DNA of 64,000 nucleotides from NCBI RefSeq assembly GCF_053078305.1, contig NZ_CP166879.1, one strand, 5' to 3'. Both the position numbers and the translations under genes were made by a program. Under the pieces are notes generated by a model. The model was not told the DNA's origin. It saw only the letters and a program-made list of their open reading frames with translations, and ran no database searches. Shown piece by piece: positions 2,002 through 24,516 of this stretch; within the stretch, counting starts at the first letter, position 1, and the number at the start of each line of letters is the position of its first letter.

Positions 2002-2667
2002 TTATGATATTTTCCCGGTTGTCGGGAATGGGGTTGCCACTGAAGAGATGCTGCATCCTTTCCTAGTCGGCAACCCGGTCAGTCTGTGGTCCGGTGATAA
2101 GATGAATCCCCACCGGCCCCATCTCACCAGATTGTTGATAATGATTTTACTTCCAAATTTACAGGGAGAGTTGGTTTTATAATTCCAACTCAGTCCCCTG
2201 AAGACGTTAATCACTCCCTGCTCAAACACCTCATCCTTATTCTGGTGCAGTTGTTCAAATGTGCTCATAATGTTCGCTTCACTGATTTCCGGAAAATTAT
2301 TGTACTCCAGTGACCGGTACCATGTATCACGGGTCTGCGCATCCATTAATGACAGCATCCCGGAGCGTTGCATCAGGTCACGCCAGATTTCACGGTCAAG
2401 GTTTCGGGTGATGGCTTTCATTGCCGTTTCAGTTTTCTCCATGAGCCAGCAGCCGCAGCGAAAATCCTGTTTCATCGCCCAGTCCCGGGCGCTTTTACCA
2501 CCAATGCTTTTTGTCAGTACTGAGATTTCAGTCAGTTGCCGGATAAGCGTTTCGGTTTGTTGCAGTGCTGCATTCCGTACCGTCACAACGTGTCGGATAC
2601 TGGTGGAGCAGATAACGTCCGTATGCCCGGTGACCACTTCCGGACGGGAGATTGTGATGTCTGACAT
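2002..2667 (-). CDS. DUF4942-like protein, island-edge gene; C-terminus possibly altered
   Basis: 221-aa ORF; family assignment from memory of the gene usually found beyond yeeW in CP4-44-like modules; last ~30 residues look unrelated (possible frameshift/truncation). Confidence 0.4.
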   Translation of the reverse strand: MSDITISRPEVVTGHTDVICSTSIRHVVTVRNAALQQTETLIRQLTEISVLTKSIGGKSARDWAMKQDFRCGCWLMEKTETAMKAITRNLDREIWRDLMQRSGMLSLMDAQTRDTWYRSLEYNNFPEISEANIMSTFEQLHQNKDEVFEQGVINVFRGLSWNYKTNSPCKFGSKIIINNLVRWGRWGFILSPDHRLTGLPTRKGCSISSVATPFPTTGKIS

Positions 2668-2751
2668 TATCGGTTTCCCTTTTGGTTTATAAACGAAAAC
2701 GCCAGCCGTATTCAGGCTGGCGTCAGGGTAATGAAGCGTGGTGAGTGATAT

Positions 2752-2949
2752 TCACCGGTTCTGGTGCAGAAGCTGCAGATGACGCAGGGTACGGACATCC
2801 TCTCTGGCCTGTTCGATACAGGGCAACAGTGCTGTCGAATCCGTTCTATCCTCATCGTTGTCAAAGATAATTCCCGATTCGCAGTCGATATTGTCCTGTA
2901 GCCACGCAATCAGAATATCCAGTGCGGTTTCCGTGGTTAATGATTTCAT
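2752..2949 (-). CDS. YeeW-like small protein
   Basis: 65-aa product from internal Met (MKSLTTETALDILIAWLQDN...); position downstream of the cbtA region as in CP4-44. Confidence 0.45.
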   Translation of the reverse strand: MKSLTTETALDILIAWLQDNIDCESGIIFDNDEDRTDSTALLPCIEQAREDVRTLRHLQLLHQNR

Positions 2950-2960
2950 GTTGTTCCTGG

Positions 2961-3449
2961 TTACCAGTCGAAAGTGGGCAGGTCCGGCAGACATTCAGCG
3001 CTGACATCCAGATGAATGAGACTGACGCCATAACGTTGGATGAGTGTGACAACCAGACGACGGAACGTTTTTGACAGCCCCAGGCGTTTAAGCCGCAGAA
3101 CCGGATATGACCACGCATCGGTACGTAACAGATATCCGCTACCTGTGAAATGAATCCATTCTGATTCACCGAAGTCACTGGTCTGGTGTGACAGCGAGTA
3201 CAACCAGGCGTTATCCTTTTCCGTGATATGTGCGGTACTGCAGCGTATGCCGGCAAGGGTTGCAAACGGTGGTAGTGTGCAGGTTGACTGTTGGTCGGAT
3301 TCCTCCACCACGCGGAGTGAATAACCGTTTTCAGCGACATTGTTAATCAGTTCAGCGAGATTAACACCATCAATGTCAACGACAATGCGCCCCATGTTCA
3401 GCGCCCGCACGTTAATGCTGTCGGCTTCCAGCGTCAGGGAAAGTTTCAT
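2961..3449 (-). CDS. Conserved hypothetical protein downstream of cbtA
   Basis: 162-aa ORF whose ATG overlaps the cbtA stop in an ATGA arrangement (3446-3449), suggesting translational coupling; preferred over the overlapping alternative-frame ORF 2861..3340. Confidence 0.5.
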   Translation of the reverse strand: MKLSLTLEADSINVRALNMGRIVVDIDGVNLAELINNVAENGYSLRVVEESDQQSTCTLPPFATLAGIRCSTAHITEKDNAWLYSLSHQTSDFGESEWIHFTGSGYLLRTDAWSYPVLRLKRLGLSKTFRRLVVTLIQRYGVSLIHLDVSAECLPDLPTFDW

Positions 3450-3823
3450 CGTTTCGCCTCCGGATGCTTACCCCGGGTAATGTTATTTACCGTTCTGTAA
3501 TTGTCGCGGGTCATCAGGCCGGTCGCCCGGCGAGCCCGGAGGATATCAATACTGTTTATTAACTGAGAGCGGGGACTAGTGCTGAACCGGGGCTGGTCGG
3601 TACGCACCAGCGCGTATTTTTCAACGAGAAAGTTCACCGCGTCACACAGTGAAATGCCTGCCTCAATATGCTGCTCAATCACACGTTCATCGGAGAACGG
3701 TGTGTCATTTAGCGTGAGGCCGTAGTGCTGGTCCAGCAGTCGGGTGAGCAGTGTCTGCCAGATGGTTACTGGAGATGGGCAGCGCGATGCCTCCCGTACG
3801 TGTGTGTCGGGTAATGTGTTCAT
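3446..3823 (-). CDS. cbtA: CbtA-family toxin (YeeV/YkfI/YpjF-like, cytoskeleton-targeting)
   Basis: 125-aa product closely matching remembered YeeV sequence (…WQTLLTRLLDQHYGLTLNDTPFSDERVIEQHIEAGISLCDAVNFLVEKYALVRTDQ…). Confidence 0.85.
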   Translation of the reverse strand: MNTLPDTHVREASRCPSPVTIWQTLLTRLLDQHYGLTLNDTPFSDERVIEQHIEAGISLCDAVNFLVEKYALVRTDQPRFSTSPRSQLINSIDILRARRATGLMTRDNYRTVNNITRGKHPEAKR

Positions 3824-7800: not shown

Positions 7801-10323
7801 TTATGCCGGTAACTCCGGGGGTAATGCTTCTTCCAGTCGGTTAACCATATTGCCGAGATGGGATGCATCATATTCCATGACGGGGCGTTGCCTGATGATA
7901 CTGACCACCAGTGGTTTGATTAACATATTGGTCGCGGCCCGTTGTTGTATACCGGCGGCGAAAATGATCTCCAGAGCATTCTGATCGATAACACGGGCCA
8001 GATTCGCGTTCAGATTTTCAATCTCATGTCCGGTCAGCAGGAAACTGCCGGCAAGCCATGTCACCTGCTCCTGAATCATTGCCAGAATTTTGACGCGATC
8101 TTCTTCAACCAGCGCTCCGGCAATTTTTCCTGATACAGCGGAGGCAATCATTCCCCCCAGAACACCGCCAACCACACGCCCTGTCAGTGCACCAAATGGT
8201 CCCAGTGGACTGAACAATATCCCGCCCGCCACTGACCCGACAGCACCACCTGCCACACCGGAAGATGCCACGGCAAGATTCCTGATGAACTGCGCACCGG
8301 AGATCCGTCCCCGCAACATTTTGATCATGTCAGGGCCGGTTGTGACAGCTACCAGTGCCAGAGATGTCACCAGCGTACCCTTCATCACTTTGTTCAGGGC
8401 ACTGATATTTCCTGCACCGGTCCCCTTCTGAAGAGCCAGTCGGACAGTCGGGCTGGCAGTCGAAAAATCAATGTGCTTCAGCATACCCTGAACAACAGTG
8501 AGCCGGTGAAGTTGCTGGGTTGTGACGTAGACAGCCAGTGTGCGGGTGAAGGTTTTTCCTGCCTGGACAGCAGCTGTCTGCAGGGCAGCATCGCGATCGC
8601 CGGTGCTGAGCCAGAAGATCGATGCCGTCAGGGCAAAACTGATCCCTCCGGCCGCCAGACTGACAACCGACCCCTCGGCAATATCATAAGTGACCGATTC
8701 GATGGTCCCGAACCGGGTGATATTACGGGCCTGAGTATAAGTCAGATGTCCCCGACGAATCAGCCGGGACGCTTCTGCGGGATCGGTTACACCGGGTACT
8801 TTACCTTCGCGGATCTTATTCCTCATGGTTTCAACAGCGCCGGCATACTGATCACGGGGGACTTCCAGTTGCATGGGGCCATTATTTCCCATGTAACGAT
8901 ACTGTCCGTTTTGTCCGTCGAATGCCGCACCGACGCTACGGGCTGCAGTTGAACAATATTTCGTCTGGATTTCTGTTCCGCTGACCAGTCTGTCTGCTCC
9001 ATTTCTGGCATTATTATCACCGAGGATCCGTGCGTTTTTCAGACGGACTCTGTCGACAATATGGTTTCCCCGTTCAGCGGCAAACCCATGTCCCTGCCCT
9101 CCGGAAGCAAACATTTTCTCATTTGTACTCCAGGTTTCCGGCAGTTTCATGAGAATCAGACCATTCGCCGTTGCATCGGAAATAAAGCTGTTGTAAGGGC
9201 GTTCATAAATTTCCTGACACAGTGTTTCTGTTTCGCGACAAAGAGAGGAGCAGTACCATTCCGGATCCGGCTTATGATTTTCCGGGGCATGATGTACTTC
9301 TGTCAGCCCGCAGGAGGCACAGATACGAAGCTCATCCACGTGATGGAATGATACAAAACGGCGACCTTCTGAAAAGGGATACCAGTCACCGCCGTCCAGG
9401 CAACGATCGAGAAAATCGTCATTCGCTTCCGGTGATAAATTCAGGCGGTTCCGGAAGAGCGTTTTCAGTTCATCAGGTGTGAATGACAGGTTCTCTTTCA
9501 ACTGTTCGTTAAACCCTGCCATGTTTCTTTCATACCAGGCATTGTTCAGTAACCAGTTTCCGTCTGCCAGTTCAAATTCCCTCAGCTCTCCCCGGGAAAT
9601 CCGTTGAGAAATGAGCGTCAGCCAGATGCGCTCCGTCAGTGAGTCAGGAAGGCTGTAATCGTTTTGCAAACTGGTCAGCCACGATTTACTGTTGAGCACC
9701 GGTTGTTCTTCCAGTGTCTGGCTGATGGCACAGGTCAGTTTTTTCAGCGCCTGGATCTGGCTGGCCGCCCATAGCAGCGTCACTAATGCAGCCAGCCAGT
9801 ACAACAACCCGCCCCACCACATCAGTGACGGTGAAATATCGTACTGTAACGCGATCAATGGTGCGCATGCAGAACACGCCATAAGGAAAAAGGCAGTATA
9901 AAAACAGCAGTAATACCCGTTAATTTCCTTGCTGATATCTTCTGGTGTGATCCCGTTCTGCTGAATGTTTTTGATCTGCAGGGGAACAGCCAGCAGACCA
10001 CCGGCGAGAGCAGTGGTCAGAATAAATTTCACAGAGTCAAAGGTGTGAGCCTCCAGCGCGATATGTTTACCATCAAGTCCCCACATGAAGCTGATGATCA
10101 TTCCGGCAATCGTCAGAAATACGCCTGCCAGCCAGCGAATATGGAACAACCGGGTTATGCGTTCGGTGATATAGCCAGCCAGTAAGGCCGGGCCGAACAG
10201 ACACAGCAATATGAGCCCTGCCAGCGCAGAAGCCGTGCTGATTAATGCTCTGAACAAAAGGCGAAGAATGGCAAATCCTGCGATCAGCAGGATCAGCGCG
10301 CCGACTATCTGTAACATAGTCAC
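7801..10323 (-). CDS. Large inner-membrane protein, YeeR-like
   Basis: 840-aa ORF immediately downstream of flu (position of yeeR in CP4-44); multiple N-terminal TM helices, Cys/His cluster (CASCGLTEVHH…CSSLC), Gly-rich hydrophobic C-terminal segment. Confidence 0.65.
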   Translation of the reverse strand: MTMLQIVGALILLIAGFAILRLLFRALISTASALAGLILLCLFGPALLAGYITERITRLFHIRWLAGVFLTIAGMIISFMWGLDGKHIALEAHTFDSVKFILTTALAGGLLAVPLQIKNIQQNGITPEDISKEINGYYCCFYTAFFLMACSACAPLIALQYDISPSLMWWGGLLYWLAALVTLLWAASQIQALKKLTCAISQTLEEQPVLNSKSWLTSLQNDYSLPDSLTERIWLTLISQRISRGELREFELADGNWLLNNAWYERNMAGFNEQLKENLSFTPDELKTLFRNRLNLSPEANDDFLDRCLDGGDWYPFSEGRRFVSFHHVDELRICASCGLTEVHHAPENHKPDPEWYCSSLCRETETLCQEIYERPYNSFISDATANGLILMKLPETWSTNEKMFASGGQGHGFAAERGNHIVDRVRLKNARILGDNNARNGADRLVSGTEIQTKYCSTAARSVGAAFDGQNGQYRYMGNNGPMQLEVPRDQYAGAVETMRNKIREGKVPGVTDPAEASRLIRRGHLTYTQARNITRFGTIESVTYDIAEGSVVSLAAGGISFALTASIFWLSTGDRDAALQTAAVQAGKTFTRTLAVYVTTQQLHRLTVVQGMLKHIDFSTASPTVRLALQKGTGAGNISALNKVMKGTLVTSLALVAVTTGPDMIKMLRGRISGAQFIRNLAVASSGVAGGAVGSVAGGILFSPLGPFGALTGRVVGGVLGGMIASAVSGKIAGALVEEDRVKILAMIQEQVTWLAGSFLLTGHEIENLNANLARVIDQNALEIIFAAGIQQRAATNMLIKPLVVSIIRQRPVMEYDASHLGNMVNRLEEALPPELPA

Positions 10324-10437: not shown

Positions 10438-13400
10438 TCAGAAGGTCACATTCAGCGTGGCCTGACCGTTATAGCCTTCAGCGCTGCTGCCGCTGACGCT
10501 GTGGACATAACCTGCCTGAACGCCCAGGGTGATGTTTTCCCGGACACGGGCTTCCAGTCCGGCCTGCAGGTCCAGTGACGTACCATTCTGTGACGGTGAG
10601 AACGTCATGTTACTGCCGGCTGCGGCTGTACCCATGCTCATGTCCCCCCGGGAGCTGAAGGTGCGGATAACAGAAGGCTGTACCCACCAGTTCACCGGCA
10701 GTTCACGCACACTGTGTTTGGCACTGCCGCGCAGGGTGTCACGGGATGAGGTGCCTTTACCAAAGTTCATATCGTTGTGGCTGCCCAGACGGAAGCCGGC
10801 ACGCACATGTTGTGCACTGCCATGCCCGAACTTCACATAACCGGCGTTGTCCTGACCGTCATCCAGGGAGAGTCCCTGCCAGGTGTACTGCAGTTGCGGC
10901 TCCAGCATCAGATTGTCAGTGATACTGAAGGGCAGACCGGTTTCCAGTGAACCCAGCCAGCCCCGGCCCCGGACGCGGAAGTCGTTATTGTCCGATGAGG
11001 CTTTCATGCTGTGGCGGGTTCCCTGGGCCACAATGTCAGCCCACAGGCCGGAGGCGTTGTGTATCAGATTCAGGTATCCGCCCAGGCTGCCGGCATCATC
11101 CCGGACCGTGCCGGCACGGGAGCCGTCATCATCCTTAACATCAACGGAAGAATGGCCTGCAGCACCATACACCCCTGTCGTCAGAGACATACCGGCAACC
11201 TCTGTTCTCATCAGGTCACCCTCCAGACGGACGAAGCCATAGCTGCCGCTGCTTTCCGGCGTGGCCCCACGGACAATACCGCCGTTGTTATCGTGACCGA
11301 GATGGCCGCCCTGAATGCTGAGACGGACGCTGTTATTTTCACCGTTTACACCGGTCTGATGGCTGCGGGAGCCTGCCAGAATCCGGTCATAGTCCATTGC
11401 CTGTGTCAGCATGGAGGCATACAGGGGGACTTCTGCACGATAAGCATTTTCACTGCGCAGATACCAGCTCTCATCACTGTCCCGGTTGAGGGAGTAGTTA
11501 AAGGCCCCGGCCTGCAGCCTGTTCCCCTGGACAAAGGCCCCTTCCTCCGTGGTGGCACCGTTAATGGCTTCCACCACCTGAATACCCTTACCGCTGGTCG
11601 CCAGCCCCGACGCACTGTTGCCGGCGTTCACCATGTTCAGGATGGTTTTTCCGGTTGCCCTGCCGCCGTCAATGACCAGTCTGTCAGCATTGTTCTGTGC
11701 CATATCCGGGCGTACACGCAGGCTGATGGTGCCATTCTGCCCGTTCAGGTTTTTCACTTTCAGGGTTGCCGGTACGAACTTCCCTGTGCGGGTGGAGGTG
11801 AAATGAATCTGTCCGGCATGGCTGAGGTCATCCACCACCGACTGCACCGTGGCGTTATCAGGGATATTCCAGGTGGCACCGGAGGCGAGAGTGACATTCG
11901 TGGGGTCAATGGCACCGTTCAGCACAGTGCTGCCGGTCAGCTTCAGGGCTGTACCGCGCTGAGCAATGACATCCGTGGTGACGGTACTGTCGTTCAGCGT
12001 CAGCGTGCCTTCATTCAGGTTGACGGCTTTCTGGGTGAGTGTGGTGTTGCTGACAGTGAGTGTGCCACTTCCTGATTTTTCCACGCTGCCGTTACCGGTG
12101 AGAGAGCCTCCCTGCAGGAGTGCATCGCCTTCACGGATGGTCAGGGTATCGTTGTTCACCGTCTTCCCGGAAAGGGTAAGTATGGCGCCGTTATTCAGCG
12201 TGGTGGTGCCCGCCAGTGTGCCGCCCCTGGCGGTGAACAGTCCGCCATTTACCGTGGTATCCGTGGCCGTATCACCGGCGTTCAGCGTGAATGAACTGCC
12301 TTTTTCCAGCATCAGGGCATCCGCCTGACCGCCTCCGATACTGAATGCCTTTCCGTCGCTCCGTGTACCACTGACAGCGGCACCGGAATCGGCCAGCAGT
12401 ACACCGCCATTTCCCATGGATACGGTGGTGGCGGTACCACCGTTGCGGACATCCAGCGTTCCGCCATCATCCACACGGGTATTAGTGGCTGTGTGTCCGC
12501 TCAGCACATCCAGACGTCCGCCATTTTCCAGTACGACATTATCAGCTTTACCCTCCACAACAGAGAATGCTCCCAGGCGGTTTGTACCGGTAACGGTTGC
12601 AGCCGTACTGGTAACCAGTGCACCGCCCGTGTTCTGGGTGACATCAGACGCTTTACCGCCGGCATTCACCTGCAGCTTTCCTTTCTGGTTGATGGTGGTA
12701 TGCGCGGCAGTTCCTCCTTCCTTAATCACCTGCCAGCCATCACGGTTTATCAGCGTCTCTGTTGCCGTGCCACCGTTGTGTACATACTGGTTACCCCCCT
12801 CCAGCCGGGTGTTATGTGCCTCTCCGTGTACCGTCTGGTCACCACCGGCGTAAATGAGGGTGTCCCGTGCCATCCCCGAAGACCAGATAACCTGCCGGCC
12901 ATTTTTGTTGATGGTGGTGGATTCAGCCGTCCCTCCGACCATCTGACCGCTGGACACATTTTCAGACTCCGGACCACCTTCTGCACCGGTGTTGACGATG
13001 GTTCCGGTTGCCAGTCCGCCATGTTTTATGGTCTGGTAACCATCCAGGTTAATAATTGTACCGGCAGCTTTCCCTCCCCCGTGTACCCACTGCTCACCTC
13101 TGTTATCCAGCGTGGTGTTCACCGCCAGTCCGTTAAGGCTCTGCCCTCCGCCATCACGAATAACCGTATCACTGGCAGTTCCTCCTGCCTGCACAATCTG
13201 ACGACCATTTGCGGTGACAGTGGTGTTTCTGCCTGTGCCACCCGCGTTTATCCATTGCCCGCCGGTGTTTTCGTCACTGTCCGGCCCCAGCTCAAGCCCG
13301 GTACTGACAGTCACGCCATCAGCTGTTCCGGATACAAACTGGTTGTCATGGTTTACCAGTGTTCCGCCATTCACTGTTTCACCCGGGTGCACAACGATGT

Positions 13401-13566
13401 CAGCAGCCAGCACCGGGAGTGACGTGACCGCGGCAAGAGACAGTGCAACCGCCACACCGCCACGTTTACCCCGTGCGCGGGCCAGTTCGGAGGCAACCAC
13501 GAAAGCGCCCGTAATGTGATTCCATACCAGCCTGTAGCAGGTATTCAGATGTCGTTTCATCAGCAT
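10438..13566 (-). CDS. flu: Antigen 43 (Ag43) self-associating autotransporter adhesin
   Basis: 1042-aa product matching remembered Ag43 along its length: extended signal peptide MKRHLNTCYRLVWNH…, passenger repeats, C-terminal beta-barrel ending …GYNGQATLNVTF. True start probably Met at 13560. Confidence 0.95.
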   Translation of the reverse strand: MLMKRHLNTCYRLVWNHITGAFVVASELARARGKRGGVAVALSLAAVTSLPVLAADIVVHPGETVNGGTLVNHDNQFVSGTADGVTVSTGLELGPDSDENTGGQWINAGGTGRNTTVTANGRQIVQAGGTASDTVIRDGGGQSLNGLAVNTTLDNRGEQWVHGGGKAAGTIINLDGYQTIKHGGLATGTIVNTGAEGGPESENVSSGQMVGGTAESTTINKNGRQVIWSSGMARDTLIYAGGDQTVHGEAHNTRLEGGNQYVHNGGTATETLINRDGWQVIKEGGTAAHTTINQKGKLQVNAGGKASDVTQNTGGALVTSTAATVTGTNRLGAFSVVEGKADNVVLENGGRLDVLSGHTATNTRVDDGGTLDVRNGGTATTVSMGNGGVLLADSGAAVSGTRSDGKAFSIGGGQADALMLEKGSSFTLNAGDTATDTTVNGGLFTARGGTLAGTTTLNNGAILTLSGKTVNNDTLTIREGDALLQGGSLTGNGSVEKSGSGTLTVSNTTLTQKAVNLNEGTLTLNDSTVTTDVIAQRGTALKLTGSTVLNGAIDPTNVTLASGATWNIPDNATVQSVVDDLSHAGQIHFTSTRTGKFVPATLKVKNLNGQNGTISLRVRPDMAQNNADRLVIDGGRATGKTILNMVNAGNSASGLATSGKGIQVVEAINGATTEEGAFVQGNRLQAGAFNYSLNRDSDESWYLRSENAYRAEVPLYASMLTQAMDYDRILAGSRSHQTGVNGENNSVRLSIQGGHLGHDNNGGIVRGATPESSGSYGFVRLEGDLMRTEVAGMSLTTGVYGAAGHSSVDVKDDDGSRAGTVRDDAGSLGGYLNLIHNASGLWADIVAQGTRHSMKASSDNNDFRVRGRGWLGSLETGLPFSITDNLMLEPQLQYTWQGLSLDDGQDNAGYVKFGHGSAQHVRAGFRLGSHNDMNFGKGTSSRDTLRGSAKHSVRELPVNWWVQPSVIRTFSSRGDMSMGTAAAGSNMTFSPSQNGTSLDLQAGLEARVRENITLGVQAGYVHSVSGSSAEGYNGQATLNVTF

Positions 13567-15238: not shown

Positions 15239-16106
15239 ATAGAGAGGAATACGCACGTAATGATTAAATGCTTTTGTTACACCATTCTTCCGGCATGAAT
15301 ATTTATCCAGTTCCCTTTTTTATTTGTGTAGTGATACTGTCGGAATAGCGTTCAGTAATGTGAAGCGTCCTGTTAAAAATCTTTAATAAATGTGTCACCC
15401 TGGTCAGGAAATATCTGCTGAGATATTATTAGTTGGTGGTGTTTTTACTGAGTAATAGCTGGCTTTTAATTCCTGAACTGAAATACTGTCGCTCGTCAGG
15501 GTTTAATTAAAACTGGATGATGATGTGAAAATGAAGGCTGGTTTTTGTGTTTGTCGAGGAAGTGTTGTTTTTATCCATTCTCATCATTGGCTGGCTGCGA
15601 TTATACAGAAGTATTTGAAGAAAAAATGGTGCATTTTATCTGTGCCGGCAGGGAGGGGGATTTTCCTGATATGTCAGTATTAAATGGTTTTTGTTATTTA
15701 TAAAAATGTCATCCTGTCCATAGAATATTGTACTGAGTACTCAGCATTCAGCGCAGGAACTGTCATCTTCTTTATTTTATTCTTCTTCAGGAGGGCAGTT
15801 TTCTGAAAGCGTTACTCCGGGGAAACTGTTTATGTTTATTCCCGGCAGGAAACCCGTACCTGCAATACCCTGGATGATGCTTTTTGCTGGTACGTTGTTG
15901 TGTGAAAATTAATCAACATGTGTGCTCCGGAGAGCGCCCGTAGACGCACAGATTCATTCTGACATTCTTTAGCGACAAAATATCGATTGGTTATTATTTA
16001 ACCTGAAAATCGACAGAAATTTTTATCCTGTATTGATTCTGATGCTATTTTTGCTATTAGTAGCAATAGTTGCGGTACTTTATGTTCTGTGTGTTGTAAG
16101 GTCATT

Positions 16107-17597
16107 ATGCCATACTTTCAGTATCCTGATGAGTTTCCCCTGAGCTCGCTGCCTCCACTCATTCGTGATGCCGTTATTGAAGCTCAGCAAATCACGCAGG
16201 CTCCCCTGGGGCTTGTGGCAGCATCTGCCCTGGGCGCTGTTTCACTTGTCTGCCAGAATCTGATTGATGTCTGCAGACTGAATACACTGCGGGGGCCGGT
16301 TTCTCTTTTCTTACTGACGCTTGCTGAGTCCGGAGAACGAAAAACCGCAGTGGACAAATTATTAATGGAGCCCCTGTACCAGCAGGAGATGCTGTTATAT
16401 TCCAGACACAAAAATGAACTGACGACATGGAAAAATAAGGAAGAGCTTTTAAAGGCGCAGAAAAAAGCATTGTTGTCAAAACTGAATAAAGAACTCCGCA
16501 AAGGCGCGGATGAGTCAGAAACGCTCAGACAACTGGAAGCGCTTCAGAAAAACAGAGGGGAAAAACCTGTAAGATATAAATTCATTTTTAATGATGCCAC
16601 GACAGCAGCAATTAAAGATCAGCTTTGTGGTCAGTGGCGTTCAGTGGGTATCATGTCTGATGAAGCCGGTATAATATTTGATGGGTATACCCTGTCTGAG
16701 CTGCCTTTTATTAACAAAATGTGGGATGGCTCCGTATTGTCGGTGGACAGAAAGAATGAACCCGAACAGATGATTGAAAATGCCAGAATGACATTATCTC
16801 TCATGGTACAACCCGGTCTTTTTGACCGATATATGGAGCGAAAAGGTTCTGTTGCCAGGGACAGTGGTTTTCTTGCCCGTTGTCTAATCAGTAAACCTGC
16901 CACCACGCAGGGGAAACGCTTTATTAACGGAGCAGTGACCCCGGGAGAATCATTAACGGCATTTCATGAACGATTAATGGAACTGGCCAGAGGCAGTATT
17001 GAAAAATCCAGTAAGGATGAACGTTATTGTCTGCATTTTTCTCCAGAAGCGCAAAAAATATTTATTGATCACTATAATGTTCTGGAGCAGGATTTGTCTC
17101 CTTCCGGACCCTTAAGCCAGTTTCGGGGGCATGTTTCAAAAAAAACAGAAAACATTGCGAGAATTGCTGCGTTATTGCAGTATTTCAGTCAGGGTGAAGG
17201 GAAAATCTCTGCCGATATCATGACGTCTGCTGTCGTAATAAGTTCGTGGTACACAGATGAATATAAAAAATTATTTGCGTTACCTGATGAATCTGAACTG
17301 CAGCTGCAGGACGCCCGGGAGCTGCTCGACTGGCTCATTGAGGAGTGCCGCGGAGAATGCCCGCCCCGTGTCAGGAAAAATTATATTCTCCAGTGTGGCC
17401 CGGGCCGGTTCAGGAACAGGAAAAAGCTGAACGTCCTGCTGAACATTCTTGCATCTCAACTCAGGCTCTCTGTCGTGCAGGAAGGAAAAACCACCTATGT
17501 CCTGCTTTCCGAAATAAACAATATCACGCTGCCTGAACTGAATGCGTGCTACAGCCAGAAACTGATAAGATGGCATGAGCAATCCTTTGGCTTATAA
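16107..17597 (+). CDS. DUF3987 protein (YfjI-like; related to P4 alpha primase C-terminal region)
   Basis: ~496-aa ORF with AAGGT RBS before ATG 16107; family assignment from memory of island-borne YfjI-like proteins. Confidence 0.55.
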   Translation: MPYFQYPDEFPLSSLPPLIRDAVIEAQQITQAPLGLVAASALGAVSLVCQNLIDVCRLNTLRGPVSLFLLTLAESGERKTAVDKLLMEPLYQQEMLLYSRHKNELTTWKNKEELLKAQKKALLSKLNKELRKGADESETLRQLEALQKNRGEKPVRYKFIFNDATTAAIKDQLCGQWRSVGIMSDEAGIIFDGYTLSELPFINKMWDGSVLSVDRKNEPEQMIENARMTLSLMVQPGLFDRYMERKGSVARDSGFLARCLISKPATTQGKRFINGAVTPGESLTAFHERLMELARGSIEKSSKDERYCLHFSPEAQKIFIDHYNVLEQDLSPSGPLSQFRGHVSKKTENIARIAALLQYFSQGEGKISADIMTSAVVISSWYTDEYKKLFALPDESELQLQDARELLDWLIEECRGECPPRVRKNYILQCGPGRFRNRKKLNVLLNILASQLRLSVVQEGKTTYVLLSEINNITLPELNACYSQKLIRWHEQSFGL

Positions 17598-17718: not shown

Positions 17719-18420
17719 TCAACAGGCGTATAACAGGTACTCGTCAATCATCAGTTCCAGCTCGCGCTTTTCCCGTTTGCGCGCCACAGCCCAGTTTTCA
17801 AGCTCTGCATGTGATTTATGCTTTAACTCTTCAGTCCAGGGCTGCATGGAGTGGGCACACATCAGATCATACCAGCACAGCCATATCAGCGTGTGGTAGA
17901 GATCACGATCGTCGAAACGCCGGAGCAGGCTGTTCAGCCTGTTTGCCAGCCGGTTTTCACCCAGACGATGTGGCTCACTGAGTAAAACGCCGCCCAGATT
18001 AAAATGTGTAAGCAGCATGATTTCATGGGTCTGAATGCTGGTCATTAACCCTTCCTGAATGGCAGGAATGAACGGTGGTGTTCCCGGGTTGACGACCTGA
18101 TAGAGTCCCTGTGGTGCCACTGAGATGATAGTGCCTTTTTCCGGCAGAAAAAAGTGTGCCAGGGTCAGACGGTGATAACCATGAAGATGCGGAGACCCCA
18201 TTCCATGAGCGACGATAAGCCTCGTTCTGATGCTGGATGAGCAGCAGCTCACACCGGTTTTCAAGTTTTTGCATAATATTCTCTCCTTTAGCGCGCAGCA
18301 AAATGCCTCCGGGGGCCGGATCATGCCTTTGCTGCGGTGGAACGGATAACGGTCAGGAATTACGGACGGGACTGTGCAATACGCGCCTGCAGCCAGGCTT
18401 CCACTTCGCTTTTCAGCCAT
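17719..18420 (-). CDS. Hypothetical protein, probably frameshifted or with a later start
   Basis: Long ORF overlaps alpA by 60 nt; a GGAGAG-ATG start at 18265-18267 opens a different frame (ORF 18023..18301) that runs only 92 codons before stopping, with the long frame offset from it by one base. Confidence 0.3.
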   Translation of the reverse strand: MAEKRSGSLAAGAYCTVPSVIPDRYPFHRSKGMIRPPEAFCCALKERILCKNLKTGVSCCSSSIRTRLIVAHGMGSPHLHGYHRLTLAHFFLPEKGTIISVAPQGLYQVVNPGTPPFIPAIQEGLMTSIQTHEIMLLTHFNLGGVLLSEPHRLGENRLANRLNSLLRRFDDRDLYHTLIWLCWYDLMCAHSMQPWTEELKHKSHAELENWAVARKREKRELELMIDEYLLYAC

Positions 18421-18566
18421 CGGGAGCTACGGCCCAGTTTGATGGGGGCAGGAAAGGCACCATCCTTGATGAGCTTGTAAAACCATTTATCGGTCAGGCC
18501 GGTCAGCTGAGTGATAAACGACATGTCGACCATCTGGTCATCCATCAGTGAAACTGGGGTATTCAT
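18360..18566 (-). CDS. alpA: AlpA-family phage/island transcriptional regulator
   Basis: 68-aa product from Met at 18566 with GGAGG RBS; AlpA-type HTH (…LTGLTDKWFYKLIKDGAFPAPIKLGRSSRWLKSEVEAWL). Confidence 0.75.
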   Translation of the reverse strand: MNTPVSLMDDQMVDMSFITQLTGLTDKWFYKLIKDGAFPAPIKLGRSSRWLKSEVEAWLQARIAQSRP

Positions 18567-18951: not shown

Positions 18952-19743
18952 TTATTCTCTGTAATTACAAACAACAGTGATCTTATCCGGTTTTTTTACC
19001 GTTACGGGTTTCAGAGGGTCAATTTTATATACAGGGGTAATGAGCACGCCGGAATTTATGGAAAAAAGAGGGACCCAGCAATAAACGTCCGGATATTTCT
19101 GTGTCTCCGGAATACCTTTTGCGCCAGAGACCATCAGATCTGTAACGCTCACAAAAAATGACTGCCGCAAATCAAAAAAGTACTCGTTATATATCACATC
19201 CTTTGCCAGCAGGATGACGGCATTACCAACAGCCGCTTTTACAGGTATTTTATCAGATGGATTATCGTGATTGTATATTGTTCTTTCGATATAAATAAAA
19301 CAGGCATATTTCGTCTTCTCCCCGGATAGCTGCATCTGGTATTCGCAAATGTCTTTGATACACCGACTTTCAACCCTTCCAATCATCTTATCCCGGCGAT
19401 AGTGTCTTTTATGTTTCAGCGCGTACAGAACACCATTTGAACTGTCAAACTCCAGGATTCTTCTGGTGAAAAGTTTGTTTTCCCAGATTTCCAGACAATA
19501 CTTCTCTGCACTGACGACATTGCGTTTGCGAGGAAGATCCCGTTGATACACTCCATTTAATAAGCGTGACTGCAGTTCGCCTGCAAGTTGATAATAACAG
19601 TTAATATCGTTAAGGACAGGTGCTGTGGCGCTGAGTAATGCGTTGATTACCTTAGAGCGCGAAAGTTTGTGGGTATGACAGTACTCATCCACAATTCGCA
19701 GCGTCTCATCACTGGTCATATTGAAAGTTATACGTGTTGTCAT
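18952..19743 (-). CDS. Hypothetical protein with N-terminal ribbon-helix-helix-like region
   Basis: 263-aa ORF in visibly AT-rich DNA; N-terminus TRITFNMTSDETLRIVDEYCHTHKLSRSKVINALL has the strand-helix-helix pattern of CopG/Arc-type RHH domains; remaining ~215 aa unassigned. Confidence 0.5.
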   Translation of the reverse strand: MTTRITFNMTSDETLRIVDEYCHTHKLSRSKVINALLSATAPVLNDINCYYQLAGELQSRLLNGVYQRDLPRKRNVVSAEKYCLEIWENKLFTRRILEFDSSNGVLYALKHKRHYRRDKMIGRVESRCIKDICEYQMQLSGEKTKYACFIYIERTIYNHDNPSDKIPVKAAVGNAVILLAKDVIYNEYFFDLRQSFFVSVTDLMVSGAKGIPETQKYPDVYCWVPLFSINSGVLITPVYKIDPLKPVTVKKPDKITVVCNYRE

Positions 19744-20069
19744 GATGATGTTTTCTGTTAATCATACGGGTTGATATGCATAACATTTCATAAAAAATAC
19801 TTTTAATTCATATAATTGATTTTTTGACTGGTTTTATCCTCGTGTGGTGGAAAGCAGTATTACTGCCACTGTAGCCAGCATAAATCTATCACACAGAACC
19901 ACCGAAAATGAAGCATTGCTCAGGGGAACACTCATACGAGTTCTCTGAACTGTGATAACCAGTATTTTTCGTTTTGGATGATTTGTTTATCGTTACAGCT
20001 ACAGGTAGTTCATGTACCATTAAAAAATAATTAAGGTTAATTAGTATTATTTATAGAAGTATGTTTATG

Positions 20070-20900
20070 TAACTCTACCTTGTAAATGAACTCTGTCATT
20101 GTACCTTGTAATTCTATCCTGTAATTCTACCTCGTAAATACACCTTGTAACCAGGTCCTGCAGAAGTCTGTCTCATAGAAGTATCTGTGCAGCGATATTC
20201 TCTGTAGTACTTGTAACACTGTCCTTAACCCTCTCTGCTGCAATGTAATCCCGTAACACCTGAATATAAATCTGTAATGTACACACTGACTGTAACGTAC
20301 TTTGTTAAGTAATGCCTGTTGTGTGGAGACTATTCTGGGTCCGCCATTGCTTTTGTGCGTTTGTGTAAGTGTTTTTGGCTAAATAAGAGTATGACTTCGC
20401 CAGTGTTGATACAGTGGATAACGGTGATTAAGGAATTACTGTTAATGATCTGTTCCTGCAGCTTACCTGATGAGTTTTGGTAGTAATACGTAAAAGAGTA
20501 TGCCTTATACCATTAAAAACAGCCTTACGGCGTGTTGTTTAACCCTGTACCTCTGTTACTCATGTAGTACGTTACGGAAAACTACGTTAATTGTCATATC
20601 GGGTTATGGCGTTATGCCTTCAGTATTAAAAACATTTTTTACCGGAGAAACAGGGAAGTGGAAAGGCTTTCGGGATAACGTCAGGCCATTCTGACGGTAT
20701 TACGTTAATCACAGTACAGGATAACGGGAGGGTAATGGAATTTTAAACCAGAGTAGTTCCGCTGTTGTTCACTGGAAAAAGTGATTGCCCACACGCGTTA
20801 TAAACGCCTTCCCGCTTCAGTCTGGTTACCAGAGCTTCAGGCGTTATATGCGCTGTAACGGGCTGTTACGTATGCTGTTCTCTGTCTGCTTCTGATACCC
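20070..20900. repeat. Dense array of short GTAAC/GTTAC-core repeats (iteron-like) in AT-rich intergenic region
   Basis: At least 20 copies of yCTTGTAAy, CTGTAATG, CTGTAACG, CGTTACGG, ACGTTAAT, GGATAACG, GCTGTTACG in both orientations between divergent genes 18952-19743(-) and 20996-21595(+). Confidence 0.6.
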
Positions 20901-20995: not shown

Positions 20996-21595
20996 ATGAA
21001 GACTTACAACGCCAATCCCGGTTACGAAATGGATCCCCAGCTCCTGACACACTTTAATCAGCATCTGGATTCATTATTCGGGGTCTATTCGAAGCTGTTA
21101 CCGTTCAGAATGGATTTTGCTTACCGAAAAAACACATTCAGCTACGGATGCGCCTGCAGGTACGCCATGTGCGCGGAGATGCTGCAACTGATTAACGAGG
21201 TGGGAGAGAAACTGGTCGGGTATGCCTGGGTGATGGAATATACAGAACGTAAAGGGCTTCACATTCATTTTGTGGGCTATCTGAACGGTCAGATCCACAG
21301 GAGTTCGTATCTGGTATCCAGATTGATGGGAGATATCTGGAGGCGGGTTACCGGGGGGGATGGTTACTACCACTGGTGCCGGTTTAATAAAAATTATCCG
21401 GTAAACATTAATCACGTCATTCACTATTCAGACCACAAAGCGGTGAATGCTTTACGCTATGCCATTAGCTACCTTGCCAAACGAGAACAGAAAGAATGTG
21501 GCATCGTTCTTGGTTGCAGCAGGCTTCCTGAAAAAAGTCACCGGGGGCGACCGCGACTGGACAGCACCCTGCCGGGGATATGTTCTCAGGTATAA
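20996..21595 (+). CDS. HUH-motif protein (candidate inovirus-Gp2 / YagK-YfjJ family)
   Basis: 199-aa ORF with GAGGAAG RBS; candidate HUH motif (GLHIHFVGY) and Tyr motif (RYAISYLAKRE) resembling rolling-circle Rep/relaxase motifs II and III. Confidence 0.5.
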   Translation: MKTYNANPGYEMDPQLLTHFNQHLDSLFGVYSKLLPFRMDFAYRKNTFSYGCACRYAMCAEMLQLINEVGEKLVGYAWVMEYTERKGLHIHFVGYLNGQIHRSSYLVSRLMGDIWRRVTGGDGYYHWCRFNKNYPVNINHVIHYSDHKAVNALRYAISYLAKREQKECGIVLGCSRLPEKSHRGRPRLDSTLPGICSQV

Positions 21596-21970: not shown

Positions 21971-22360
21971 ATGACGATGTACGCAAAATCTTTTCTCGCA
22001 TTCGATGGCAACGGATGCCTGACCGTTGCCCGTACTGCACAGACAGCGCCTTACGATCGATACACCTGTCACCTTTGCGGCAGTGCGCTCAGATACCACC
22101 CGCAATGCGATACCGAACGTCCCTGGTTTGAACACACTGGCGAAGGGCTGGCTGAGCACGGTCATGAGTGCCCTTATGTCAGACCGGAGCGCAGAGAAAT
22201 ACTGTTGATTAAACGCTTACAGCAATGGGTACCGGATGCCTTACCCGTGGTGCGTAAAGCCAGCTGGCACTGCAGACAATGCCAGCACGATTATTATGGG
22301 GAGCGGTACTGCACACACTGTCATACAGGGCGTTTCAGTGAGGAGGCAGTGGCAGGATGA
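21971..22360 (+). CDS. Cys-rich putative zinc-ribbon protein (paralog 1)
   Basis: 129 aa; CxxC near N-terminus (CHLCGS), WFEH motif, C-terminal WHCRQC-x10-CTHCH zinc-ribbon-like pattern. Confidence 0.5.
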   Translation: MTMYAKSFLAFDGNGCLTVARTAQTAPYDRYTCHLCGSALRYHPQCDTERPWFEHTGEGLAEHGHECPYVRPERREILLIKRLQQWVPDALPVVRKASWHCRQCQHDYYGERYCTHCHTGRFSEEAVAG

Positions 22361-22782
22361 ACGGTCTAAAAACGGGGCTGGGGATGACGCCGGGTGAGCA
22401 CATTATCAGTGCCGATTCTGCGCTCAGCAGAAATATCAGGCATTGTTTCTGCCTTTCCTGTCGTGGTCGGTTGATTTTGCAGACAGATGCTCAGGGGGCG
22501 TGGTTTGAGCATGATTTACATGCCCTGAGCGAGCAACAGAAGGCGGCCTGTGTGGTGCTGAATCCGGAAAAATCCCATCCTTACATTGATGATATGGCGA
22601 TGTTTTTATCGCCATTACCGGTCGTACTGGAGTGGCATTGTGTGATGTGTGAGCAGTTTTTTCATGGGAAGAAATTCTGTGAGGCCTGTGGTACGGGGAT
22701 TTATTGCAGAGCAACATGTACGAAGTCTGTTTACAGCTACCAGCCAGATTTGTACCAGGACTGCGGAGGTGCGAGTACTTAA
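22357..22782 (+). CDS. Cys-rich putative zinc-ribbon protein (paralog 2)
   Basis: 141 aa; same architecture as paralog 1 (CFCLSC, WFEH, WHCVMC-x10-CEAC); start overlaps upstream stop (ATGA), GAGGAGG RBS. Confidence 0.5.
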   Translation: MNGLKTGLGMTPGEHIISADSALSRNIRHCFCLSCRGRLILQTDAQGAWFEHDLHALSEQQKAACVVLNPEKSHPYIDDMAMFLSPLPVVLEWHCVMCEQFFHGKKFCEACGTGIYCRATCTKSVYSYQPDLYQDCGGAST

Positions 22783-23253
22783 TCCAAAATATCCGCTCTG
22801 CGCAGGGCGTTCAGAGGTATTGCCAGCCTGCATTTTATCCGGTGTTTCGCACCCACCCCGTTCGTGACACAAAGGCGCGACACCGGATATCCGCAGTCCT
22901 GCTTACCTGAATAAAACCCGGGGGATTGATTGTGTACTGTGGTGCGAAATCGCACCGTGATCGCGGATTCGCCGAATCTGCACTGTGGTGTCAATAAACC
23001 ACACGCGAGAGTCCTCTCCGTATTGATCAGTGCATCAGGACGATTTCTGCATTGTTAATCCAGGGGCTGCATTATTCATTTCCCTGCTAATGGACGTTAC
23101 ATCCTAGATATTCATGATCCTGATTTCCCTGAGCAGTATCAGCGCTTATTGGAGCGTCTGGATTATCTGACGAAGCCCGGTACTAAAGCATCAGGCCAGC
23201 GTAACTCTGGCTACAGCGGTTTTTGACCTGTTGTAACTGTAAGGTGATTTATT

Positions 23254-23820
23254 ATGTATACAGAATCAAACGTTAAGCTTTCCTGTAACGCCCTCTGGCA
23301 AAAGTGTGTCCTTGCAACTCTGTATCGGGCTGCAGCCACACATCCTGAAATTAAATTATTACAATTTAAATTAATACCTTGCCCTGGTATTAATAAGGCC
23401 ATTCCCTCTCTGATGGCTGATTTTACTGGTGAACTGCATAGACTCATTTCTGAATATTTGCAGTGCAAGCGACGTAAAGATAAATCTGTTGAGCCCACCC
23501 CTTTATATTATCTCTGGAGTAGGGAGGCTGTGGCTAACGGTACCACTCCTTATCTTATGGTGCTGCTACTTAATAATGATGTCTGGTGTAAGAGTCGTGA
23601 GGTGGTGGTTCTCAGAAATCTGATTGAGCAGGCGTGGGGAAAAGTATTGGGTGAAGATAACTCCATTACACATCTGGTTGTGTATCCTGAAGTGCTGTCG
23701 TTGGTATTTGATGCAGCTAACACATACAACGCTGAGCCTGGTGTACTGGAACAGACAGCCCGGGCTTACATTGAATCGCATGGTGCTGTTGAACGTTATC
23801 TTGGGTGTAGTGACTTTTAA
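23254..23820 (+). CDS. Hypothetical protein
   Basis: 188-aa ORF with AAGGTGA RBS 8 nt upstream of ATG; no motif recognised. Confidence 0.45.
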   Translation: MYTESNVKLSCNALWQKCVLATLYRAAATHPEIKLLQFKLIPCPGINKAIPSLMADFTGELHRLISEYLQCKRRKDKSVEPTPLYYLWSREAVANGTTPYLMVLLLNNDVWCKSREVVVLRNLIEQAWGKVLGEDNSITHLVVYPEVLSLVFDAANTYNAEPGVLEQTARAYIESHGAVERYLGCSDF

Positions 23821-24267
23821 CGTCAGGTGACGCATTGTCACTTCTGACCTGCTACCTGTACGCCGGAATATAATGGTCAGAGAGGCATATTTCGACGCCC
23901 CTAATCTGGGGCGTTTGATTCTGGATGTCTGGAACAATCCGGGCTTTGTGTCACCGGGCGCATCAAAGCAGTACCACCCGGGATGTGGCGCTGGATCGTC
24001 ATTTACCGGACTGCGAAGACATACTTAAAGAGGTGATATGGGCGTTCAGTGATTTTGTCCGCGATAATCGTGGTGTGTATGATCCGGAAGCCCGTTACCC
24101 CGCCGGTAATACCTGGTATCCCGTAACAGGCCAGTTCTGAAAGCACAGCTCAGCAGATTCCCCGCATTCGCACAATCTTCATAAATCTCACAGAGGACAT
24201 TCTGACCATGTTGACTACAACAAGCCACGACAGCGTATTTCTGCGTGCCGATAATTCCCTGATTGAC

Positions 24268-24516
24268 ATGAACTATATCACCAGTTTCACCGGTATGACC
24301 GACAGAGGGTTTTATAAGCTGATCAGTGAAGATTCATCAAGCCGGGCCGATCCAGCCGCAGGTATAAAAGCGAAGTGTCACAGTAGATACAGTAACGAAT
24401 CGAAGAATCACGGGGGCAGAAGTATGAAACGTGTTGTGATACCGGTACGCTGGCAATGTTCAACGTGTCAGCGCTGGTATTGTGGCGCTGTTCCCTGGTG
24501 CTGGTCCCCCCCGTGA
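24268..24516 (+). pseudogene. alpA-like gene remnant
   Basis: Only the first ~22 codons (MNYITSFTGMTDRGFYKLISED) resemble AlpA (compare MSFITQLTGLTDKWFYKLIKDG at 18360-18566); the rest of the ORF is unrelated. Confidence 0.5.

Follow-up and report, generated by a model that had tools for sequence, protein, structure and literature searches.

A YagK/YfjJ-family protein of Escherichia coli islands that lacks the catalytic residues of its Rep-type HUH relatives

YagK and YfjJ are long-standing 'y-genes' of the cryptic prophages of Escherichia coli K-12, found in CP4-6 and CP4-57, respectively. The gene order in CP4-57 is intA, yfjH, alpA, yfjI, yfjJ. YfjI is a DUF3987 protein, and one protein of this kind was shown to be a 5'-3' helicase (PMC11724360). 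An 'inovirus Gp2-like' gene has been listed among the likely core functions of intY/alpA islands (bioRxiv 10.1101/2024.08.29.610337). Our search of the literature on YagK and YfjJ returned mentions of the names and no experiment on function or on the nicking of ssDNA, and the literature on the 'YfjJ iModulon' (PMC11472167) gave nothing on mechanism.

As Rep-type HUH endonucleases for comparison, we took the nuclease domains of AAV Rep and parvovirus NS1, SIRV1 ORF119, pMV158 RepB, and the Rep proteins of Microviridae and CRESS viruses. Ilyina and Koonin reportedly defined the HUH/Rep motifs in 1992, and Chandler and colleagues are said to have reviewed them in 2013 (both cited in PMC9943647). 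The origin-binding domains of SV40 large T antigen and papillomavirus E1 presumably lack catalytic residues. Jin and colleagues reportedly found in 1997 that replication in vitro is inhibited by RepC/C*, the inactivated initiator of pT181. This form arises by post-translational inactivation of the initiator and is not encoded by a gene of its own. By analogy, these cases may share one concept, that of an initiator-type protein or fold that does not cut and still takes part in the control of replication, whether it binds an origin or inhibits the active form. The chemistry of the HUH superfamily is defined by a pair of metal-binding histidines with a hydrophobic residue between them and by a catalytic tyrosine, and where origin-binding domains with this fold recognise dsDNA, they do so outside the active site (PMC9943647). 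Its enzymes depend on a metal to nick ssDNA at specific sites and form a covalent 5'-phosphotyrosine intermediate.

We analysed a gene of this family in a stretch of DNA of 64 kb, hereafter the window. The gene (23254–23820, + strand) starts with ATG, ends with TAA, and encodes 188 aa; the Shine-Dalgarno sequence AAGGTGA (23241–23247, +) can be read directly 6 nt before the ATG. An earlier, sequence-only reading had described a 188-aa ORF with a good ribosome-binding site, placed between a Cys-rich pair of genes and an alpA remnant. Both descriptions hold: DUF7828/zinc-ribbon genes lie on the 5' side and an AlpA-like remnant (24208–24330) on the 3' side. A promoter scan of the + strand placed no sigma-70-like site directly upstream of the gene, but the scan was uninformative because shuffled sequence gave at least as many sites. 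By our estimate, a random 64-kb sequence would contain fewer than one ORF this long; we take this as secondary, and consider it almost certain that this is a real gene and a homologue of the YagK/YfjJ family chiefly because it is conserved. In most respects it is ordinary, having been catalogued before in a family that is known but uncharacterised. The identical protein is present in NCBI on 24 contigs as an E. coli 'YagK/YfjJ domain-containing / DUF3296 / inovirus-type Gp2' protein, and its cluster at 90% identity has 3,028 members, which is represented by 188-aa forms and also includes many shorter entries. What is new is the loss of the active site, which sets this protein apart as a non-catalytic member of a Rep-type HUH family whose signature is clear enough to be put to the test.

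YagK/YfjJ proteins as Rep-type HUH proteins

We built alignments of 27–35 members of the family, covering both subfamilies and reaching down to about 15–20% identity. In these, ten columns show no variation or almost none. Four of them (W, E, W, and S) are probably structural, and the remaining six are polar: R-x-D in the first core strand, H-x-H in the third strand, and Y-x-x-K in the C-terminal helix. In the intact members, H-hydrophobic-H followed by Y-x-x-K has the order and spacing known from Rep-class HUH endonucleases. The invariant glutamate of the family lies eight residues before the first histidine, an arrangement that we take to resemble the Glu-His-His metal site of AAV Rep.

Profile searches gave a similar picture. 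REP_ORF2-G2P (PF23343) matches 32 of the 35 aligned members at E ≤ 0.1, and a YagK-like protein of 204 aa (WP_000628304), which we call the partner because its gene lies next to the gene under study in some islands, has a weak match to the PHROG family 'replication initiation protein' (E = 7e-5). A search of the PDB sequences with the profile of the family alignment returned nothing meaningful, the best match being a histidine kinase at E = 1.6. In a tblastn search of 50,697 phage records, at BLAST-level sensitivity, neither the 188-aa protein nor the partner matched an inovirus. The former matched a single 4.5-kb E. coli record, and the latter matched that same record and one Microvirus Rep (E = 1e-3).

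The window also encodes a YfjI-family DUF3987 protein (16089–17597, +; Pfam DUF3987, E = 2.3e-95), the probable helicase of the island's replication module. From the Rep-type motifs, the profile matches, and the DUF3987 genes of CP4-57 and of the window, we infer that proteins of the YagK/YfjJ family serve their islands as nicking initiators or in a relaxase-like capacity.

Three homologues in the window and the loss of the active site in one of them

The Pfam family PF11726 (YagK_YfjJ_C, formerly DUF3296 / Inovirus_Gp2), in which membership is given by a score at or above the curated gathering score, matches the 188-aa protein with 38.5 bits (cut-off 25.8, E = 1.4e-9). The names given by RefSeq to the orthologues (YagK/YfjJ domain) agree with this assignment; NCBIfam had no model for the protein. 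The match spans residues 52–156 and positions 26–134 of the 170 of the profile, and the C-terminal part with the tyrosine motif is unmatched. The sequence-only reading had seen no recognisable motif. This was mistaken as regards profile searches and apt in the literal sense, given that the catalytic motifs of the family are absent.

The same reading had proposed that either this gene or the ORF starting at 20996 was the YagK/YfjJ member. Both are homologues, so the choice does not arise, and the window contains yet a third copy. The ORF at 20996–21595 (+) encodes a Rep-like paralogue of 199 aa from a sister subfamily, with intact R-x-D, HIH, and SYLAK motifs, which make it a candidate for the active enzyme of the island. 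It scores just below both gathering cut-offs (22.5 against 25.8 for PF11726, and 23.8 against 27.8 for PF23343). More generally, its subfamily is poorly covered by the current Pfam models. The third copy is a stub of the partner gene (23071–23226, +), with 51 codons and a stop, detected by tblastn at 86% identity to residues 154–204 of the partner. It keeps the DYLTK tyrosine motif and has lost the start codon and the N-terminal two-thirds.

The six polar residues (R37, D39, H108, H110, Y185, and K188 in the numbering of the partner) are present in 25 out of 25 other members of the family. In the clade of the 188-aa protein every one of them is replaced: R by Q37, D by K39, the two histidines by P99 and L101, Y by Q167, and K by R170. 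The region of H-x-H aligns without gaps (GKKHYHLLLLVNRDTWC against GTTPYLMVLLLNNDVWC), with P-Y-L in place of H-Y-H. In the BLAST alignment, the tyrosine falls in a 3-residue deletion of the protein, and there is no Y-x-x-K under either alignment. The position of the family lysine still varies among alleles, which have R or Q. W88, E91, W128, and S186 are kept, and the analogy with AAV Rep makes E91 a likely candidate for the third ligand of the metal. At E ≤ 0.1 PF23343 does not match this clade, which makes up exactly the 3 of the 35 members left unmatched by the profile.

The predicted structure retains an alpha/beta fold of the HUH type with a central antiparallel sheet, with a C-terminal helix modelled at low confidence (pLDDT 50–58). 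Sequence identity to the solved structures of Rep-type HUH endonucleases is 3–17%. No other clade of the family is acidic: this one has a pI of 6.0–6.4 and a net charge of -1 to -3, against a pI of 7.6–9.9 in the family and a net charge of +12 in the nearest (sister) lineage. The protein of the window has an overall pI of 6.4 and a net charge of -1, and nonetheless retains a KRRKDK loop. Because all six invariant polar residues are replaced and the basic surface is neutralised, it is hard to see how this protein could be a nickase, and we consider it very probably catalytically dead. The sequence-only reading had called its function unknown, which is right as far as experiments go and understates what the sequence says: all the residues that the family would need for catalysis are lost.

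The comparison with the K-12 proteins shows both sides of this divergence. The 188-aa protein is homologous to YagK and YfjJ (21–25% identity), belongs to the same length class, and has the same predicted order of secondary-structure elements. Unlike them, it lacks the six invariant residues, is acidic instead of basic, and sits on an isolated long branch. It likewise departs from the Rep-type HUH endonucleases in having neither the HUH motif nor the catalytic tyrosine, i.e. the features that define the superfamily (PMC9943647). In a neighbour-joining tree it is the sister of a lineage of 189-aa proteins (e.g. L001:4050–4619), with a clearly longer branch, and its mean p-distance to other members of the subfamily is 0.755, against 0.60–0.65 for the others. 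We rejected a recent tandem duplication of the partner as the origin of the gene: the two proteins are 23% identical, and the 188-aa protein groups with the 189-aa lineage.

Among 1.84 billion representative proteins, an exhaustive phmmer search found only 44 matches, from which we set aside four long proteins matched in multiple stretches. The matches above 74% identity are all fragments of the protein itself. The next full-length relatives are 32–36% identical (32–39% for relatives overall) and have an intact HUH motif, and this search revealed no intermediate or dead relatives elsewhere. A word-indexed protein search returned only near-identical proteins of E. coli. The gene is nearly confined to this species, with a few records in Salmonella and Klebsiella, has no orthologue in K-12, is rare on plasmids, and is essentially absent from phage records (1 out of 50,697).

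Genomic contexts and selection

The sequence-only reading had named absence from all other genomes as the outcome that would speak against the gene, and the opposite was found. Among 5,426 complete E. coli genomes, 1,250 have a megablast match to the gene and 793 (about 15%) cover at least 80% of the ORF, at 90–99% identity. The copies are almost always chromosomal and occur in up to three places per genome. A 'plasmid' copy at 82% identity (L014) was considered as a diverged orthologue and rejected; it is an allele with a double frameshift, and the 1-Mb record that carries it is probably a fragment of a chromosome.

We distinguished two contexts. In context B (L006–L009, L011, and L015), one strand carries genes for an AlpA-family regulator, a 248-aa protein, a 186-aa HTH_7 protein, the intact partner, and the 188-aa protein, and the partner gene lies 27 bp upstream of the gene under study in all six loci. 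This operon-like arrangement mirrors the order yagM, yagL, yagK of CP4-6. As in the K-12 islands, AlpA, YagM-like, YagL-like HTH, and YagK-like genes follow each other on one strand, and the partner is 58% identical to the YagK of K-12. Context A (this window, L001, L003, L010, L012, and L013) begins with hha, whole or as a remnant, and a gene for a Rep-like protein of 199 or 189 aa. The zinc-ribbon pair, the stub of the partner, and the gene under study come next, and an AlpA-like gene, again whole or as a remnant, ends the series. Every context-A island carries, or once carried, another Rep-like gene. The partner DNA is at least 80% complete in 366 of the complete E. coli genomes, compared with 793 for the gene under study, and most of its partial matches consist of the last 153 nt only. 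Because the gene outlives its partner, of which the window has only the stub, its role does not strictly depend on it; if it acts on an active enzyme, other Rep-like paralogues, such as the ORF at 20996, would then have to be acted upon.

The closely related context-B islands (L006–L009 and L011, positions 2359–3567) differ by 0–3 nt in the partner gene and by 3–17 nt in the gene under study. This sharp step in diversity across the 27-bp spacer suggests recombination or mosaicism at the junction.

The zinc-ribbon genes of context A encode proteins with DUF7828 and Zn_ribbon_11 domains: the first (21971–22360, +) has 129 aa (Pfam E = 8.6e-28, dN/dS 0.14), and the second (22357–22782, +) has 141 aa (Pfam E = 1.9e-22, dN/dS 0.15). 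These paralogues overlap in tandem, are under strong constraint, and have a very high mean dS between islands (0.35 and 0.17). We rejected a fixed association between them and the gene under study, given the context-B islands without the pair. The AlpA-like HTH remnant (24208–24330, +) is frameshifted and matches residues 1–41 of an intact 65-aa protein of E. coli Nissle with 93% identity (tblastn); RefSeq annotates a frameshifted AlpA-family regulator at the orthologous site. A second AlpA-like HTH gene (18393–18542, -) is apparently intact and 68% identical to the AlpA-like protein of Nissle. An hha-like remnant (about 20757–20822, +; 62% identity over 26 aa) lies upstream of the ORF at 20996.

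The gap of 1.25 kb between the latter ORF and a gene encoding a YagM-family protein (18952–19743, -; named after the RefSeq orthologue in L003) is poor in genes and contains an iteron-like array (20069–20150). The array has five units of about 13 nt with a consensus near CCTTGTAAnTCTA and spacings of 26, 13, 13, and 13, and is surrounded by a TGTAA-rich zone (about 20060–20320). It is the sole such cluster in the 64-kb window, is conserved in the corresponding position of L003, and might serve Rep-like proteins as an origin or operator. We did not find it in the context-B loci L006–L009 and L011, which span 3 kb on either side of the gene.

We also noted other features of the window. The only Rfam match in it at the gathering score is the 'IS102' sRNA RF00124 (13585–13789, -; 252.9 bits), just upstream of a gene for an Ag43/AIDA-type autotransporter (10438–13566, -), which is adjoined by an ORF of 839/840 aa (7801–10323, -) with no Pfam match at E ≤ 1e-5. 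A type I secretion set (38976–48832, +) consists of a TolC-like OEP, an ABC transporter, an HlyD-family protein, and then a bacterial Ig-like protein of 1,614 aa, a probable secreted giant adhesin. Further downstream (zone 49228–55021), two genes for YadA-type trimeric autotransporters (49228–50970 and 53756–55021, +) are separated by an IS66-family transposase (52067–53680) and could represent a single adhesin locus that the IS has divided. A protein of 595 aa encoded at 59320–61107 (+) fuses a NERD (nuclease-related) domain with a UvrD-like helicase, an architecture often seen in defence islands.

We sampled 12 alleles across the range of 90–99% identity, diverging by up to 6% at the nucleotide level, and all 12 are exactly 567 nt long, ungapped, and free of stops. 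The polymorphic sites at codon positions 1, 2, and 3 number 19, 11, and 27 (10 alleles), which fits this reading frame. The Nei-Gojobori dN/dS of the deeper pairs (dS 0.10–0.17) ranges between 0.13 and 0.30. Relative to the consensus of the 12 alleles, 31 variants are synonymous and 31 non-synonymous, with 30% synonymous expected under neutrality (binomial p = 7.5e-4). None of these 62 variants is a nonsense change (2.2 expected), a result that is weak alone. The count-based omega is 0.43. When computed in the same six genomes, omega is 0.22 for this gene, and 0.14 and 0.15 for the adjacent zinc-ribbon genes. Because of the dN/dS values, the excess of synonymous changes, and the intact alleles, we conclude that the gene is under moderate purifying selection and is not drifting.

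These results bear on the possibility that the gene is a slowly decaying relic that lost its function after duplication, and whose ORF persists because little time has elapsed or because it hitch-hikes in a mobile island. Several observations fit such a scenario: the catalytic residues and the basic charge are lost, the branch is accelerated, remnants lie all around the gene in the window, and in half or more of the carriers the partner has been destroyed. Broken alleles are known as well: besides L014 with its double frameshift, P0003 has lost an internal segment and H60 is interrupted by IS1. The protein cluster has its many short entries, and the count-based omega is 0.43. Set against this, the pairwise dN/dS, at dS of up to 0.17, comes near the values of the intact neighbours, synonymous changes are in excess and nonsense changes lacking, and the length is constant in the 12 alleles in spite of their divergence. 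The dominant cluster is moreover represented by full-length forms, and the ribosome-binding site is kept. We regard the relic as an unlikely explanation, if one to be taken seriously.

Possible roles of the non-catalytic copy

Our best explanation, taken as a whole and with its mechanism, is tentative. The gene would be a functional component of an integrative island of E. coli of the CP4-6/CP4-57 type. YagK/YfjJ proteins would be small single-domain Rep-type HUH endonucleases, with a metal held by H-x-H and the glutamate and a nucleophilic tyrosine in the Y-x-x-K helix. They would presumably nick the DNA of the island, leading to rolling-circle replication or to mobilisation after AlpA-driven excision, and would work with the DUF3987 helicase YfjI. 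The 188-aa protein, having kept the fold while losing the six polar residues and the basic surface, would be a pseudo-enzyme without catalysis. By binding the active paralogue, or by competing with it for a DNA site or a host partner, it might tune, and probably restrain, initiation. A regulatory or accessory role of this kind in the Rep-like module is possible, and we hold it with slightly more reserve than the explanation as a whole. Against the latter stand the decay of the neighbours in the window, where alpA, hha, and the partner are all remnants, the selection on the gene, which is only moderate, and its far greater variation than that of the partner in context B. The survival of the gene without its partner, the lack of a sigma-70-like site directly upstream in the promoter scan, and the low-confidence C-terminal helix of the model also count against it.

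The protein might instead be a non-catalytic, sequence-specific DNA binder that works on its own, as an independent repressor or an origin marker, and not via its paralogues. The model for such a role would be the origin-binding domains of large T antigen and E1, which it resembles in having an HUH-type fold without catalytic residues. Those domains are, however, basic DNA binders fused to SF3 helicases, whereas the 188-aa protein is acidic and free-standing: it is a single domain, with no SF3 helicase fusion and no other fused helicase or oligomerisation domain. The fold kept in the predicted structure is compatible with DNA binding, and the basic loop CKRRKDKS (residues 71–78) is retained and matches the KRKRREGKR loop of the family. 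HUH-fold origin-binding domains contact dsDNA away from the active site (PMC9943647), and the iteron-like array lies nearby. But the clade, the sole acidic one, has about 13–15 fewer net positive charges than its sister lineage, Arg and Lys are lost from the N-terminal and Tyr helices, which we infer to line the DNA cleft of the HUH fold, and the array was not found in the context-B loci. On balance this role seems doubtful.

A new function outside the replication of the island, as a decoy or inhibitor of the Rep of incoming ssDNA phages, plasmids, or competing islands, is improbable. It would agree with the persistence of the gene without its partner and with its high allelic diversity relative to that adjacent gene, and intY/alpA islands similar to this one often carry defence genes together with the Gp2-like core gene (bioRxiv 10.1101/2024.08.29.610337). 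Yet dN/dS is below 1, and we observed no sign of diversifying selection. Finally, that the protein is still an active nuclease through alternative residues, such as the family-invariant Glu91 with Tyr172, five residues after the lost tyrosine, is barely credible when the metal-binding histidines have become Pro and Leu, the R, D, Y, and K are gone too, the Rep profile PF23343 fails to recognise the clade, and the histidine pair and tyrosine define the chemistry of the superfamily (PMC9943647).

We return to the preferred reading, that of a pseudo-enzyme acting in the Rep-like module. Unlike RepC/C*, the 188-aa protein is a separately encoded paralogue of the putative active enzymes. In its boldest form, which we think rather unlikely as stated, the proposal is that selection maintains a 'dead Rep' in about 15% of E. 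coli genomes. This conserved pseudo-nuclease paralogue would control, and probably inhibit, the replication or mobilisation of CP4-type islands by binding the active YagK/YfjJ nickases, or else would block the Rep of competing elements that replicate via ssDNA. If true, it would provide the first mechanistic handle on YagK/YfjJ, comprising an active enzyme and a natural dominant-negative partner.

The name 'inovirus-type Gp2 protein' implies an active replication enzyme of phages, and this copy is almost certainly none. It offers a ready-made negative control for the biochemistry of YagK/YfjJ proteins. Relatives of these proteins belong to the core of alpA/integrase islands in many Proteobacteria, and the Rep-type signature of the family, together with a paralogue that lacks its residues and is still under selection, leads to a testable model in which an island nickase would be accompanied by a non-catalytic modulator.
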